A DNA stretch of 20,812 bases from a virus (lineage: Duplodnaviria; Heunggongvirae; Uroviricota; Caudoviricetes): positions 1 through 20,812 of IMG/VR virus record IMGVR_UViG_2534681662_000008, one strand, 5' to 3'. This document shows, one piece after another, positions 1 to 4,295 of the stretch (position 1 is the first letter of the stretch; the number at the start of each line of letters is the position of its first letter). A program made the position numbers and the translations under genes. The notes under the pieces are model-generated. The model had not been told where the DNA came from, ran no database searches, and saw nothing but the letters and a program-made list of their open reading frames with translations.

Positions 1-291
1 GAGGAGGGAAAGCGTTATCGCCGGGCTGTGGCGCTTATTGTTCGCCAGCAGCGGCTGAAATTAAGGCTGTCCGGAAGGCTGGCGATAAAGGTGATTGCAG
101 AGCCACCGGATAAGCGTCGTCGCGACCTGGACAATATCCTGAAAGCACCGCTGGATGCGCTGACGCATGCGGGAGTGTTAATGGACGATGAGCAGTTTGA
201 TGAAATCAATATTGTGCGCGGTCAGCTCGTTCCTGGTGGTCGGCTGGGCGTGAAGATTTACGAAATTACAGGTGATAACGATGGCGCGTGA
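1..291 (+). CDS. rusA: Holliday-junction resolvase RusA, 3' portion (5' end lies outside the window)
   Basis: Frame 1 is open from base 1 to TGA at 289-291. The translation (...[31 protein letters not shown]...[13 protein letters not shown]) matches the RusA C-terminal core as I recall it, and RusA sits immediately upstream of Q in lambdoid prophages. Confidence 0.75.
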
Positions 292-667
292 TATTCAGCA
301 GGTTATGGAGCGGTGGGGAGCATGGGCTGCAAACAATCACGAAGATGTGTCATGGGAGTCAATAGCTGCTGGTTTTAAAGGATTAATCCCGCCGAAAGTG
401 AAATCACGCCCTCAGTGTTCTGATGATGATGCAATGATAATTTGTGGCTGCATGGCCCGGTTGAACAAGAAAAATCAGGATTTGCACGATTTGTTGGTGG
501 ATTATTACGTAGGTGGAATGACTTTTATGGGGCTGGCACGAAAGCATGGGTGTTCGGATACCTGTATTGGCAAGCGCCTGCAGAAAGCGGAAGGGGTTAT
601 TGATGGCATGTTGATGATGCTTGATATCCGACTGGAGATGGACAGATACGTAGAACGAATCATGTAG
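281..667 (+). CDS. Q: Late-gene antitermination protein Q (QuuD-like family)
   Basis: ATG at 281 is preceded by AGGTGA (270-275); stop TAG 665-667. [36 protein letters not shown]...CGCMARL...[20 protein letters not shown] closely resembles the cryptic-prophage Q homologue of E. coli (recalled). Overlaps the rusA stop by 11 nt. Confidence 0.8.
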
Positions 668-671
668 GAGC

Positions 672-701
672 TTGACCAGACACATTGTCCGGGGCTATAT
701 T
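672..701 (+). promoter_or_regulatory. Candidate Q-dependent late promoter (pR'-like): -35 TTGACC (672-677), 18-bp spacer, -10 TATATT (696-701)
   Basis: Sigma70-like hexamers 5 nt downstream of the Q stop codon, which is the canonical position of pR' in lambdoid phages. Not verified experimentally or by a promoter model. Confidence 0.4.
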
Positions 702-764
702 TCCGACGCAACCGCAAAATCGGTTGTCGGGATTAGCACCCCGGATGTTTACGGAGCGATATGA

Positions 765-785
765 GGCGCGCCCGCGTCTTTTTTC
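765..785 (+). terminator. Weak hairpin plus T6 tract, candidate tR'-like terminator about 60 nt downstream of the candidate pR' start
   Basis: GGCGC(765-769)/GCGTC(774-778) stem with one G-U pair, followed by TTTTTT (779-784). Position fits the short pR'-tR' unit on which Q acts. Confidence 0.3.
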
Positions 786-948
786 ATATCGTTTGCACAG
801 TCATATTCGCGATTTATGGCGGGCTGTGTGGGGGAGCCGAAAGGCTCGCCGGTTTCCGTACCCGGTAGTGCTAACCCCGCACAGTTCGCCACCACGATGA
901 TTAGCACCTGACGGTGGCGATAATGTCCAAATGTACGGAGTTATCGTT

Positions 949-1536
949 ATGACCACTCAGATTTCTGTCGAAACTCTTTCCCCAATTACACACAACCAAA
1001 TTCCCGTTATCACTACCGAGTTACTGGCACAGCTTTACTGTACCGATATCAACAACATCAAAGTAAATTACACCCGTAATTCCGAGCGTTTTGTTGAGGG
1101 TAAACACTTTTTCAAGGTTGTTGGTGATGAGTTGAAAAATTTGCGGGTTACTTTAAGTAACTCACAAAATTTGCAACCATCTTTAAGAGGGTTACAAATT
1201 TCCCCGAAAACCCGCTCCCTTATCCTCTGGACAGAACGCGGAGCAGCCCGTCATGCCAAAATGCTGGAAACCGATCAGGCGTGGGATGTGTTCGAAAAAC
1301 TGGAAGACTGTTATTTCAGCCAGAAACAGCCACCAGCAGCACAAAACTCCCCAACACCAAATGATGGATGCGCATTGCTGATCCACTTCGATAAACATGG
1401 TCAGGTCGAATTCACGGAAAAAGCCCCCGCCGATGCGATGGTATGCACTCTGGAACGGTTTAAATTTTATCTGGAGCAATACGGCTGGATCGTTGCCCGT
1501 AAAGAGCAACTGGTGGAACGACTGATGAGGCTTTAA
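949..1536 (+). CDS. ORF6N-domain protein (phage antirepressor/KilA-like DNA-binding family)
   Basis: ATG 949 with GGAG 8 nt upstream; 195 aa. Motifs IPVITTELLAQLYCTDINNIKVNYTRNSERFVEGKHFFKVVGDELKNL and LILWTERGAARHAKML fit the ORF6N-domain pattern as I recall it. Call rests on motif recognition only. Confidence 0.55.
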   Translation: MTTQISVETLSPITHNQIPVITTELLAQLYCTDINNIKVNYTRNSERFVEGKHFFKVVGDELKNLRVTLSNSQNLQPSLRGLQISPKTRSLILWTERGAARHAKMLETDQAWDVFEKLEDCYFSQKQPPAAQNSPTPNDGCALLIHFDKHGQVEFTEKAPADAMVCTLERFKFYLEQYGWIVARKEQLVERLMRL

Positions 1537-1611
1537 AAATTTCCCCCGAACGCTTTACGATCGTAAAAAGTTGAATATCCTGTTAAGAGTGGTTACTACG
1601 CCACACAGCTT

Positions 1612-1638
1612 AAACCCGCCGCCGAGCGGGTTTTTTTG
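1612..1638 (+). terminator. Rho-independent terminator after the ORF6N gene
   Basis: Stem CCCGC(1615-1619)/GCGGG(1626-1630) flanked by AAA, followed by TTTTTTT (1631-1637). Confidence 0.6.
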
Positions 1639-1833
1639 TGTCCGGAAAGTGGTGCAGTACGTTAAATGCGCATGTTATTTTTCTAAAATTCATGAATAAT
1701 AAAAATACATACATATATTTACGAATATTGACATGATTTTCTATTGAAAAAAGAGCCGGCATTATTAATATCCATCTTCGGTTCCGAATGGGATATAAAG
1801 CGCGGTCATTTTTATTTCTCTTGAGGAACCAAT

Positions 1834-1909
<76 letters not shown>

Positions 1910-1912
1910 TAT

Positions 1913-1987
<75 letters not shown>

Positions 1988-2352
1988 GCATTTGCAACAA
2001 GCCTTATTGTATTGCGGCACTGGTGTATTTTTTATTACGTGGGAGCAGGTTGTTTTGAAAAAGCATTCTGTTCTCTGGCTATAATTTGAGGCCAGGTGTA
2101 GCCTCAGTGCTGATTTTTTTACGACAGCAGAATGGTGCATTATCGGTGGAGATTTTGTATTTCCTGGCAGGGTCGGTGATGCATCATTCTGGTGTTGTAA
2201 ATCGCACCAAAGAGGCGCACCTAAGTGCGAGTGTGGTTTAAAGAGTCGGTTTAGCTGGAAATCACAGTATCCATACAGCACGGAATACTTCGGGAGGCGC
2301 CAGACGCCTCGGTTTAATAACAATTAAAAAATTCATCCCTTGCATTGACCAA

Positions 2353-2377
2353 CCGCCATATCTGGCGGTTTTTTTAT
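2353..2377 (+). terminator. Rho-independent terminator (palindrome CCGCCA-TATC-TGGCGG plus T7)
   Basis: Perfect 6-bp stem (2353-2358 / 2363-2368) followed by TTTTTTTATT. Confidence 0.55.
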
Positions 2378-2702
2378 TCCTTTCTCATGACGAAAAAAGA
2401 CACGAGCATCCAGGAATACTCGTGGGACAACGTCCTTTGGATAGCAATTTGCGAGAGGGTGAAAAGTAGCGCGGTCGTCGGATTAAGACCGCGGGACAAA
2501 GTCCATGAAGAATAATAAGTATTGGCCCCCTTCCGGGGACATGTTCATACTACTAAGATTCAGAAGTGGTTTAAATCCTCAAATTAACATTAATTTCCGA
2601 TAAGTCTTATTTCATTTCTTTGCGCCACATCTGGCGCGCATCAAATAACGCCACGCAAAGGGCATCTGCGGATGCCGGTGCTTTTGACGGGGTGTTTTTT
2701 AC

Positions 2703-2725
2703 GGGCCGCTGGTGGCCCTTTTTTA
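2703..2725 (+). terminator. Rho-independent terminator 18 nt upstream of the holin ribosome-binding site
   Basis: Stem GGGCC(2703-2707)/GGCCC(2714-2718), loop GCTGGT, then TTTTTT (2719-2724). A second hairpin, GGCATC-TGCG-GATGCC at 2661-2676, lies just upstream. Confidence 0.55.
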
Positions 2726-2743
2726 TTTACAGGAGAAAAAAGT

Positions 2744-3136
2744 ATGTCTGAACCCTTATCCGGTTCCGGCACGGCTGCGGCGCTCGGCGGGGCGACGGTG
2801 TACGGGCTGTTTACCGGGACGGATTTCGGGATTGTGTTTGGTGCGTTCGCCGGTGCGTTATTTGTGGCAACGATGCCGCAGGCGCTTTCAGCCTGGCGTG
2901 TGGCGGCGCATTTTCTGGTGTCGTTCATTATCGGCGTGCTGGGGGCAGAGGTTCTGGCGTCCTGGCTGGTAAAGCATACAGGGTTTGACGGTGCACCTGT
3001 CGACGCACTGTGTGCAGTGCTGGTGTCAGTGGTGTCGGTGAAGATTCTGTCGTTCATCCACCAGCAGGATATTGCATCACTGGTGTCCGGTGTGTTCTCC
3101 CGCCTGCGGGGCGGAGGAGGCGGCAATGTTAAGTAA
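2744..3136 (+). CDS. Putative holin (Gly-rich membrane protein with 3 predicted TM helices)
   Basis: ATG 2744 with AGGAGA at 2731-2736; 130 aa. Three hydrophobic segments and a charged C-terminus (SRLRGGGGGNVK). First gene of the lysis cassette, directly upstream of the endolysin. Family not pinned down. Confidence 0.55.
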   Translation: MSEPLSGSGTAAALGGATVYGLFTGTDFGIVFGAFAGALFVATMPQALSAWRVAAHFLVSFIIGVLGAEVLASWLVKHTGFDGAPVDALCAVLVSVVSVKILSFIHQQDIASLVSGVFSRLRGGGGGNVK

Positions 3137-3404
3137 CCTTCCCGGATTGCTGAATGTGGCGTTATGCACGGTTATCGTGCTGACGCTCTTTTTTTATCGT
3201 CGTCGTGACTCCAGACACAAACCGCTGATGTCATGGCTGGCCTGGCTGCTGATGCTGCTGTATGCCTTTGCGCCCCTCAGCTATCTGTGCGGTCGCCCGT
3301 TAGCGGCGAACTGGCTGGCGGTGGGGCTTAATCTGCTGTTCTGCGTGTTGGTGATTCGCGCACGCGGGAACGTTTCAAAAATCTTTGTATTACGAAGGCG
3401 CTGA
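3126..3404 (+). CDS. Second holin or antiholin-like lysis membrane protein (3 predicted TM helices)
   Basis: ATG 3126 with GGAGG at 3113-3117; overlaps the upstream gene by 11 nt; 92 aa. Hydrophobic segments LLNVALCTVIVLTLFFY, LMSWLAWLLMLLYAFAPL and ANWLAVGLNLLFCVLVI, with a basic C-terminal tail. Confidence 0.5.
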   Translation: MLSNLPGLLNVALCTVIVLTLFFYRRRDSRHKPLMSWLAWLLMLLYAFAPLSYLCGRPLAANWLAVGLNLLFCVLVIRARGNVSKIFVLRRR

Positions 3405-3405
3405 T

Positions 3406-3951
3406 ATGAAGTCGAAAGATGAAATTTTTGACGAAGTTCTGGGAAAAGAGGGCGGTTACGTCAATCACCAGGATGATAAAGGCGGACCGACAAAATGGGG
3501 TATTACTGAAAAAGTTGCCCGTGCGCACGGATACCAGGGCGATATGCGTGATCTGACGCGCGGACAGGCGCTGGAAATACTCGAGGCGGACTACTGGTAT
3601 GGACCACGTTTTGACCAGGTGGCAGCGTTATCCCCTGATATTGCCGCAGAGTTGTGTGATACGGGCGTCAACATGGGGCCAGCCGTGGCGTCAAAAATGC
3701 TTCAACGCTGGCTGAACGTTTTCAACCTGCGCGGGAAACTGTATCCGGATATGGATGCAGACGGACGTATCGGGCCGCGTACTCTTAATGCATTACGGGT
3801 ATATCTGAAAAATCGTGGCAGGGATGGAGAGCTGGTAATGCTGACCGCACTGAACTGTACGCAGGGTGACCGCTATCTGGAGCTGGCAGAGAAACGGGAG
3901 GCTAACGAGTCGTTTGTTTACGGCTGGATGAAAGAGCGCGTAGCAGTTTAA
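3406..3951 (+). CDS. Endolysin: GH108-type N-acetylmuramidase domain with a C-terminal peptidoglycan-binding domain
   Basis: ATG 3406 with GAAGG upstream; 181 aa. Contains the GH108 signature EGGYVNHQDDKGGPTKWGIT near the N-terminus, and the C-terminal half fits a PG_binding_3-like domain. Starts 1 nt after the stop of the preceding membrane protein. Confidence 0.85.
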   Translation: MKSKDEIFDEVLGKEGGYVNHQDDKGGPTKWGITEKVARAHGYQGDMRDLTRGQALEILEADYWYGPRFDQVAALSPDIAAELCDTGVNMGPAVASKMLQRWLNVFNLRGKLYPDMDADGRIGPRTLNALRVYLKNRGRDGELVMLTALNCTQGDRYLELAEKREANESFVYGWMKERVAV

Positions 3952-4046
3952 AAACTGACACTGAAGTGCTGAACACCCTCAACTCATGCAGGCTCTTTTT
4001 TGGGGTTACGATGAGCGAAGATAAGGGGGGGCAGCATCAGATAGCA

Positions 4047-4086
4047 AAAACCCCGGCTGCTGGAACAGTCCGGGGTTTTCTGTTTC
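4047..4086 (+). terminator. Strong rho-independent terminator downstream of the endolysin
   Basis: AAAACCCCGG (4047-4056) pairs with CCGGGGTTTT (4070-4079), followed by a TTTCTGTTTCT tract. Confidence 0.65.
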
Positions 4087-4112
4087 TGACCCTGGGTAAG
4101 GCAAAGGAGAAC

Positions 4113-4295
4113 ATGAGGAAGTATAAACTAATTCTGTTGAGGTTGACTATGAAAAACGGCCTTGAATTGAAAGCGCCCGTAACTGATGACATCAGCAGAG
4201 CGGTGGCTTTTGCCATTAAGTGGGTGGCTGTCGGTATCACTGTGTCTCCGATGCTGTATGGGATGGCAAAATTGATCATTGCTGTGAAATCGTAA
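4113..4295 (+). CDS. Small membrane protein (60 aa, C-terminal TM helix), function unknown
   Basis: ATG 4113 with a strong AAGGAG at 4103-4108. MRKYKLILLRLTMKNGLELKAPVTDDISRAVAFAIKWVAVGITVSPMLYGMAKLIIAVKS. An in-frame ATG at 4011 would extend the ORF through the terminator hairpin, which I consider less likely. Confidence 0.45.
   Translation: MRKYKLILLRLTMKNGLELKAPVTDDISRAVAFAIKWVAVGITVSPMLYGMAKLIIAVKS

Follow-up and report, generated by a model that had tools for sequence, protein, structure and literature searches.

Conserved RNA structures between the tRNA and holin genes of a lambdoid prophage point to a probable island of RNA genes and transcription terminators

What occupies the slot between the tRNA genes and the lysis genes of a lambdoid prophage when no obvious cargo gene is present? 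The virus sequence IMGVR_UViG_2534681662_000008 (Caudoviricetes) raises this question, because 756 bp rich in hairpins (positions 1988–2743, hereafter the interval) separate its tRNA-Gly gene from the gene for a Phage_holin_8 holin. We refer to the whole analyzed stretch of 20,812 nucleotides (nt) as the window; it is the late region of a lambdoid prophage. An initial annotation had described the interval as the cargo slot between tRNAs and holin, which is correct, as UMNK88 carries the TerB and DUF3927 genes there. It had further proposed that the slot encodes one or more phage small regulatory RNAs (sRNAs) or a structured RNA. Covariation and the homology of 2197–2314 to the STnc100 sRNA family support this proposal, and we conclude that the interval is probably an island of RNA genes combined with transcription punctuation, not a decayed gene.

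Parts of the interval occur in 548 of 5426 complete E. coli genomes (about 10%), with a coverage of at least 80% in 215 of them. Only two phage records cover most of it; about 170 further loci were collected by pattern scans of viral and metagenome contigs, and a scan of genome contigs added one locus in Escherichia ruysiae. The phage records that match the trailer or the long hairpin described below are all from Escherichia phages. Among the matches listed, annotation is absent or reads “hypothetical protein”. At the level of sequence, comparison of these relatives demonstrates that selection maintains the hairpins of the interval: paired positions have changed on both sides, a closing helix is split between two pair types, and covariation on the minus strand exceeds that of controls. 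All hairpins of the initial annotation were recovered to within about 2 nt, and the region from 600 to 3200 contains 12 terminator-like sites, compared with 2.6 ± 1.8 in shuffled sequences. The plus-strand fold of 1988–2377 is far more stable than that of shuffles (z = −5.4); the remainder, 2378–2743, is as a whole not unusually stable (z = −1.7).

The second half of segment A (Table 1) provides the link to a known RNA family. On the evidence of fold and reciprocal model matches, 2197–2314 is homologous to STnc100 (RF02076), and we file 2197–2377 as a diverged STnc100-family sRNA ending at terminator T1. The Rfam model aligns over its full length, at 27.3–27.9 bits, with the homologues of window 2190–2377 in loci L004, L017 and L032, and it scores 129 bits on the canonical copy in FDAARGOS_1267. 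In the reverse direction, a covariance model built only from the window-type family (R1) finds canonical members: the FDAARGOS_1267 copy (L008 3411–3546, E = 3e-4), prophage PP5 of E2348/69 (L115 186–308, E = 3e-9) and Sakai Sp5, 90 nt past stx2B (L187 3138–3272, E = 3e-6). The alignment of the two groups shares the closing helix, the hairpin with loop GUGCG and the hairpin CGGGAGGCACCCG. The multi-branched fold transferred from Rfam is 95.3% paired in 19 distinct window-family sequences; in the closing helix, pairing reaches 99.1%, and U-A and C-G alternatives divide 10/9. Among the enclosed hairpins are the loop-GUGCG hairpin and UCGGG-AGGCA-CCCGA. Two hairpins that had been noted earlier in this region, CGCAC/GTGCG (2216–2229) and the inner pairs of GAGGCG/CGCCTC (2294–2310), are present in the window but do not belong to the conserved fold; they arise mainly through mutations of the window copy, and few relatives can form them. 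The pairings conserved in relatives are CCUC/GAGG and the long-range GAGGYG (2212–2217) with CRCCUC (2305–2310).

In its canonical form, STnc100 follows the stx2 operon at a distance of 75 nt and overlaps the Hfq-bound sRNA EcOnc27/sRNA103 (PMC12370729, PMC12711010). Experimental work has recovered members of the family as Hfq-bound RNAs from the corresponding slot of Stx2 phages (PMC12711010), and a common origin of PasD and STnc100 has been argued (bioRxiv 10.64898/2026.05.13.724894). An Hfq-associated transcript is on record for canonical copies only (EcOnc27, PMC12711010; PasD, PMC8550237). For the interval itself, a 5-kb Rfam search returned no family at E ≤ 1 and only weak partial matches at E ≤ 10; the microRNA-precursor matches merely reflect the long hairpin and were dismissed.

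Upstream of this core, 1988–2377 appears to be the 390-nt trailer of a tRNA-Thr/tRNA-Gly operon that apparently has its own promoter. The sigma-70-type promoter, preceded by an AT-rich stretch, retains both position and hexamers (TTGAAA/TTGCGA and TAATAT/TATCAT/TATTAT at a spacing of 16) across five loci whose upstream genes are unrelated, so the operon looks autonomous. This arrangement suggests that the phage tRNAs are expressed independently of Q. The initial annotation had mentioned a structured RNA processed from the late transcript; for the plus-strand elements, a dedicated tRNA-operon promoter is more probably the source than the late transcript alone. Within the trailer, the long-range helix GGCACUG/CAGUGCU is 99% paired in 57 sequences, with four of its seven pairs invariant and hence little covariation. 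It encloses a variable domain including the hairpin 2089–2104 (89% paired, two pairs changed on both sides), and a U7 run (2114–2120) follows it. As a speculation, this helix and the U7 run might form a first, conditional terminator.

The largest and best-conserved structure of the interval, which the initial hairpin map omits, is an 84-nt hairpin. It consists of a lower stem of about 25 bp rich in G.U pairs, a 3' internal loop UGGCAGGG and an apical stem of 4–6 bp. Because its plus-strand fold (−43.2 kcal/mol, z = −7.0) is far stronger than its minus-strand fold (−20.3 kcal/mol), we assign it to the plus strand as an RNA feature. In 57 distinct sequences its 29 pairs are 99.6–100% paired; 14 of them vary on one side via G.U intermediates, and in 5 both partners have been exchanged. 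Slid controls, computed for the entire structure tested in segment A, reach 35–52% pairing. Nucleotide diversity is 0.09–0.17 over 2106–2200 versus 0.25–0.35 in the flanks, and in 110 of 118 instances the core of the hairpin starts 130–147 nt past the tRNA-Gly gene. The hairpin remains in loci from which the downstream sRNA-like core is deleted. As the most conserved element, and one that survives such deletions, it is predicted to have a role of its own. With 29 pairs, 19 of them contiguous in the window fold, it attains the duplex length typical of RNase III substrates, at least some two helical turns. The internal loop UGGCAGGG is retained where the apical stem has been replaced: the metagenome variant L164 (1898–1964) carries an unrelated stem-loop, GGGCU...AGCCC, on the same lower stem and UGGCAGG loop. 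A duplex scan for a cis target of this loop gave nothing convincing, and a sigma-54 promoter at the conserved UGGCAGGG...UGCA loop was rejected by eye, the spacing being 13 and not 10.

In segments B and C, positions 2392–2539 of the minus strand probably encode a second RNA, a candidate sRNA that is so far unannotated. The promoter motif T(T/G)TAAA, 17 nt, TA(A/G)TAT recurs in 57 of 59 unique sequences; none of its bases was part of the pattern used to collect them. The predicted structure is 92.4% paired in 54 distinct sequences, with a covariation score of 0.227 compared with 0.140 for shuffles and 0.04–0.09 for slid controls. U.G is the most frequent state at three of the pairs; on the plus strand it would be a C.A mismatch. 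The first terminator hairpin, t1, is followed by U6–8 in most lineages (the L004, L006, L007 and L024 types), and the second, t2, by U6–7 in the window type. An early reading from a few G.U pairs had placed all hairpins on the plus strand; the minus-strand alignment counts reversed it for 2401–2424 and 2526–2538. The hairpins 2401–2424 and 2471–2495 reported by the initial annotation thus exist and are best read as terminators of the minus strand. The lowest diversity falls on the single-stranded CCAAUACUUAUUAUUCUUCAU region (2490–2519, π = 0.04–0.06) and not on the terminator stems; this value is partly biased in that most of the stretch lies inside the search pattern, and relatives ascertained by BLAST also have it as their best-conserved part. 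Of the 5426 complete E. coli genomes, 369 contain the module. None of the 40 matches listed carries an RNA gene annotation, and the module has no match in Rfam.

Two sequence features of this module were observed in addition. The motif YCGYGGGACAANGUCC occurs twice (2419–2436 and 2489–2505), each time as a hairpin end followed by a GGAC-NNN-GUCC mini-hairpin, and at the first site the mini-hairpin covaries from GGAC/GUCC to UGGC/GCCA. The piece 2462–2506, comprising a terminator hairpin and GGGACAAAGUCC, matches alone at 89% identity in genomes, O103:H2 among them, where the remaining module is absent; other RNA genes may contain this piece as well. A further plus-strand hairpin, 2622–2637, is located upstream of the minus-strand promoter. 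Across 47 sequences its pairing reaches 92.7%; both partners have been exchanged at two pairs, and several pairs are G.U on the plus strand.

T1, with an invariant stem and a variable loop, is 95% paired in 57 sequences and is predicted to end the tRNA/sRNA unit. In unique sequences upstream of Phage_holin_8-type holins, a crude pattern detects T3 in 42 of 52 and T2 in 39 of 52. A put-like cis-antiterminator was rejected on logic, because transcripts from the tRNA promoter would then enter the lysis genes.

Several observations weigh against an island of functional RNA genes. The Rfam search that the initial annotation had proposed as a check recovers STnc100 over the full model in the relatives named above, but in the window only as a partial alignment (2308–2379, 14.7 bits, E = 1.1), and even the best relatives, at no more than 28 bits, miss the gathering score of 47 bits. 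The window copy is mutated in two hairpins, CGGGAGGCACCCG and the loop-GUGCG hairpin, that are conserved in nearly all relatives and here read GGGAGGCGCCAGA and CCUAAGUGCGAGU. Its derived substitutions (2223, 2233, 2299 and 2302) are common only to few relatives (L022, L058 and L094), and the copy may be decaying or changing specificity, of which decay would count against function. On the minus strand, the promoter of the window copy is weak (4/6 and 4/6 matches, below the scan threshold), t1 is followed by only U4 in the window type, and the hairpin 2471–2495 fits the plus strand better in one lineage (L005 type), which we read as a degenerate copy. The covariation stems from few independent events among closely related sequences, and literature searches by sequence strings retrieved no paper with the sequence of the element. 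Finally, that these RNAs are expressed and have a function is something we infer.

If the interval is an RNA-gene island, its parts could work together as follows. During lysogeny, the constitutive promoter at 1744–1771 would produce tRNA-Thr, tRNA-Gly and the 390-nt trailer, stopping at T1, and RNase P and RNase E would release the tRNAs. Cleavage of the trailer, either at the U-rich stretch (RNase E) or within the 84-nt hairpin (RNase III), could yield a stable 3' STnc100-like fragment, which would act as an Hfq-dependent base-pairing regulator in the manner of EcOnc27 and PasD. The 84-nt hairpin may serve as a processing or stability determinant or as a protein-binding RNA. From the weak sigma-70 promoter at 2574–2546, a convergent minus-strand sRNA of 78–148 nt would arise, in which a 5' stem-loop precedes a U-rich seed and intrinsic terminators. 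Such an RNA could have targets in trans, and it would also be perfectly antisense to the leader of the late transcript. Transcription from the tRNA promoter, or from the late promoter without Q, would be stopped by T1, T2 and T3 before it enters the holin gene, and Q-modified polymerase would read through them. A precedent is the StxS sRNA, which RNase E processes from a longer terminated phage transcript (PMC7547250).

A bolder reading, which we treat as a tentative possibility, is that about 2016–2201, comprising the 84-nt hairpin and the GCACUG/CAGUGC helix, represents a previously undescribed class of structured RNA tied to phage tRNA-Gly(UCC) and has its own function; this would be, for example, a protein-binding or processing switch coupling the output of the tRNA operon to what happens to late RNA downstream. 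As a distinct point, the minus-strand RNA would be a new prophage sRNA whose antisense pairing also silences leaky late transcripts.

Comparison with known systems places the RNA-gene island in context. STnc100 (EcOnc27/sRNA103 of E. coli O157 and PasD of enteropathogenic E. coli, EPEC) occupies the same slot, past Q, tRNAs and any cargo and before the lysis genes, and it likewise forms the 3' end of an upstream unit, closed by an intrinsic terminator. The common multi-branched fold and motifs (loop GUGCG; CGGGAGGCACCCG) are matched by covariance models in both directions. Unlike canonical STnc100, the window branch follows a tRNA operon and a long hairpin instead of stx2B or a DUF3927 gene, and its middle hairpins differ; in sequence it is too diverged to reach the gathering score, its members scoring 28 bits or below. 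The StxS RNA is a short PR'-tR' transcript of Stx phages that, during lysogeny, stops at an intrinsic terminator; RNase E then trims it to a stable 3' sRNA (PMC7547250). We propose the same route for the trailer of the tRNA operon; sequence and promoter differ, and the StxS-like position, 1562–1646, lies outside the interval.

The minus-strand candidate resembles PasA and PasC of EPEC E2348/69, which also lie directly upstream of the holin/lysozyme operon on the opposite strand. These RNAs have a stem-loop and poly-U end, and TerB-family genes are frequent neighbors (bioRxiv 10.64898/2026.05.13.724894). We compared the PasA/PasD2, PasC and PasB loci of E2348/69, leaving out the PasD1 locus. 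BLAST at word size 7 against the PasA/PasD2 and PasC loci gave chance matches only. An identity with PasA, PasB, PasC or PasD was rejected, given the lack of similarity at the PasA/PasD2 and PasC loci and the tail-gene context of PasB. The candidate and PasA/PasC thus appear alike in position and design, with homology not demonstrable.

Stable RNAs that are co-transcribed with tRNAs and freed by tRNA processing include the 3' external transcribed spacer of E. coli glyW-cysT-leuZ and the species 1 and 2 RNAs of the phage T4 tRNA cluster. The trailer has no known sequence relation to them, and it differs in being much longer (390 nt) and in containing the 84-nt hairpin. In lambda sib and the T7 hairpins, long imperfect duplexes are cleaved by RNase III and control the fate of flanking RNA. 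The 84-nt hairpin is also a long imperfect phage RNA duplex and differs from these sites by its conserved asymmetric internal loop UGGCAGGG, for which no counterpart is known to us.

Could the structures serve as punctuation alone? Terminators and RNase III/E sites would then isolate the tRNAs from the lysis mRNA, no RNA would act in trans, and stable fragments would be by-products. Four or five terminator-like hairpins within 756 bp, an 84-nt hairpin of RNase III substrate size, tandem terminators placed right before the holin and conserved with it, and the insulation that a strong tRNA promoter upstream of lysis genes needs all fit this explanation. We nevertheless consider it unlikely, because terminators require neither a conserved -35/-10 pair on the opposite strand nor a conserved multi-branched core common with a known sRNA family, and diversity is lowest in single-stranded 2490–2519 instead of the terminator stems. 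It is very unlikely that the inverted repeats act as DNA, whether as recombination linkers where mosaic segments join or as cruciforms or sites of protein binding. Segment boundaries do coincide with hairpins and terminators, and lambdoid phages recombine at such boundaries. However, many stem positions are G.U, which pair only in RNA and on one strand (in up to 56 of 57 sequences at individual pairs), U.G is the commonest state at three minus-strand pairs, and the long hairpin is more than twice as stable on the plus strand. GOLLD and ROOL, large ornate RNAs, lie next to tRNA genes in phages of other bacteria; their neighborhood (prophage, by tRNAs, near lysis genes) and their length are similar to those of the interval. 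That the interval is one such RNA is nonetheless extremely improbable: neither family is matched in Rfam at E ≤ 10, a strong internal terminator and convergent units divide the interval, and its segments occur independently.

A protein-coding origin, as a cargo remnant such as TerB or as a very small gene, is highly improbable. The initial annotation had named a decayed gene in homologues and a lack of covariation support among the findings that would speak against its proposal, and neither of these two was observed. It had seen no credible plus-strand open reading frame (ORF). One tidy ORF with an ATG does exist, 2505–2603, encoding 32 amino acids, and a real protein was initially favored, as frame, length and Arg codons are kept at about 77% identity. 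Of 40 unique variants, 29 (about 73%) retain its length and stop codon, the start being ATG or GTG; TerB and DUF3927 genes occupy the same slot in relatives, and RefSeq calls ORFs in the interval in some genomes. The protein was dropped because of the dN/dS test and frameshifts. The ratio of non-synonymous to synonymous change (dN/dS) is 0.44, compared with 0.51–0.94 in the five other frames and 0.05 for the start of the holin, and 29 nucleotide variants yield 26 different peptides. In 11 of the 40 unique sequences the frame is broken, in several distinct ways, with the hairpins still kept, and one frame-breaking insertion lengthens a stem. By dN/dS and frame retention, no protein-level selection was seen on this ORF, and its conservation is better explained by the promoter and sRNA features of the minus strand. 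Across segment A, 42 of 56 relatives show between 1 and 13 indels relative to the window that would shift a reading frame, their lengths not being divisible by three. The “hypothetical proteins” annotated in relatives lie in differing frames and look like noise, and a Pfam search of the interval ORFs gave no match. In UMNK88 the cargo is an insertion at 2644/2645 with both flanks intact, and no cargo-gene sequence is left in the window.

This insertion also illustrates how the slot is assembled. The interval has a mosaic structure: it consists of four segments, each of which recombines independently of the others among lambdoid prophages. Segment A travels with the tRNA genes and segment D with the Phage_holin_8-type holin, and the segments are found apart from one another in L004, L008, L009 and L132. 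In UMNK88 (L004), TerB and DUF3927 are inserted exactly at the C/D joint, directly 5' of segment D, and other DNA takes the place of segment B. That 425-bp insert (L004 2777–3202) carries two more plus-strand terminators and a tRNA/tmRNA-like 3' fragment with a weak Rfam tmRNA match at 3011–3106. In FDAARGOS_1267, B and C stand alone between Q and a tRNA-Ile gene. There (L008 2960–3593), the minus-strand module is followed 160 nt later by canonical STnc100 and then by tRNA-Ile, all between Q and holin, so that the same RNA genes as in the interval appear in reshuffled order. Some loci have only the first part of A, a terminator and D.

Prophage sRNAs such as StxS, AgvB, AsxR, EcOnc27 and the Pas RNAs rewire regulation in pathogenic E. 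coli. What is new here, as far as comparative analysis can tell, is a branch of the known STnc100 family, a candidate prophage sRNA of familiar design and one strongly conserved hairpin. The branch extends the STnc100/PasD family to prophages without Shiga toxin, and its tie to a tRNA operon suggests that such sRNAs are generally 3'-end products of cargo units. Stacked terminators would let a constitutive promoter sit safely upstream of lysis genes. The interval offers two testable candidate RNA genes in addition to the conserved hairpin.

Table 1. Features of the interval and its surroundings in the window
Feature	Position	Strand	Description
RusA	28–291		
Q antiterminator	281–667		family PF06530
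isrK / C4-antisense / ORF6N module	695–1536		
Terminator	1612–1640		
Sigma-70-type promoter of tRNA operon	1744–1771	+	-35 TTGAAA, 16-nt spacer, -10 TAATAT; consensus scan
tRNA-Thr(UGU)	1834–1909	+	ARAGORN; tRNA pair in Rfam: 69.8 and 65.6 bits
tRNA-Gly(UCC)	1913–1987	+	ARAGORN; tRNA pair in Rfam: 69.8 and 65.6 bits
Interval studied	1988–2743		between tRNA-Gly and Phage_holin_8 holin
Segment A	1988–2377		
Long-range helix GGCACUG/CAGUGCU	2016–2022 with 2105–2111	+	RNAalifold
84-nt hairpin	2118–2201	+	RNAalifold on 57 distinct sequences
Diverged STnc100-family sRNA core	2197–2314	+	closing helix 2212–2217 with 2305–2310; three or four enclosed hairpins
Terminator T1	2351–2377	+	AACCGCC-loop-GGCGGUU and U7; terminator scan
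Segment B	2378–2468		
Candidate minus-strand sRNA	2392–2539	−	about 78 nt to first terminator, about 148 nt to second; start near 2539
Terminator hairpin t2	2424–2401	−	then U6
Segment C	2469–2645		
Terminator hairpin t1	2495–2471	−	then U-run
Small hairpin GGAC-UUU-GUCC		−	between single strand and t1
U-rich single strand CCAAUACUUAUUAUUCUUCAU		−	21 nt, after 5' hairpin; predicted seed CUUAUUAUUCUUCAU
5' hairpin	2538–2526	−	loop GGAA in window; often GNRA loop
Promoter of minus-strand candidate	2574–2546	−	-35 TTTAAA (2574–2569), 17-nt spacer, -10 TAGTAT (2551–2546)
Hairpin GCGCC-ACAUCU-GGCGC	2622–2637	+	upstream of minus-strand promoter
Segment D	2645–2743		
Terminator-like hairpin T2	2647–2696	+	U-run to 2700; scan and fold
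Terminator-like hairpin T3	2703–2718	+	U6, to 2724; scan and fold
Holin ribosome-binding site AGGAG	2731–2735	+	T2, T3 directly upstream
Phage_holin_8 holin	2744–3136		ATG at 2744; Pfam
Second holin, then GH108 endolysin			3' of Phage_holin_8 holin

Beyond the endolysin, the larger ORFs look like a structural module. In the LT-IIb toxin phage SerU-LTIIb (L001), the tRNA/trailer/holin module is present as a tandem double (1122–2424 and 3028–4127), the first copy ending in a truncated holin pair; a keyword literature search on LT-II prophages found nothing bearing on the interval. On the upstream side, 695–1536 contains isrK (71 bits), C4 a1/b1 target sites and a C4 antisense RNA (78 bits), followed by an ORF with an ORF6N domain (949–1536). 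We take this to be a P1-type c4/ant-like immunity module, comparable to Gifsy-1 isrK-anrP; as an insertion, it separates the Q gene from the late-promoter-like region. That region, 1562–1646, is 86% identical to DNA directly 3' of a different Q gene in FDAARGOS_1267 (L008 2644–2728), with a similar stretch in L005. It ends in the terminator 1612–1640, and its position is that of PR'-tR' and the StxS sRNA in Stx phages.

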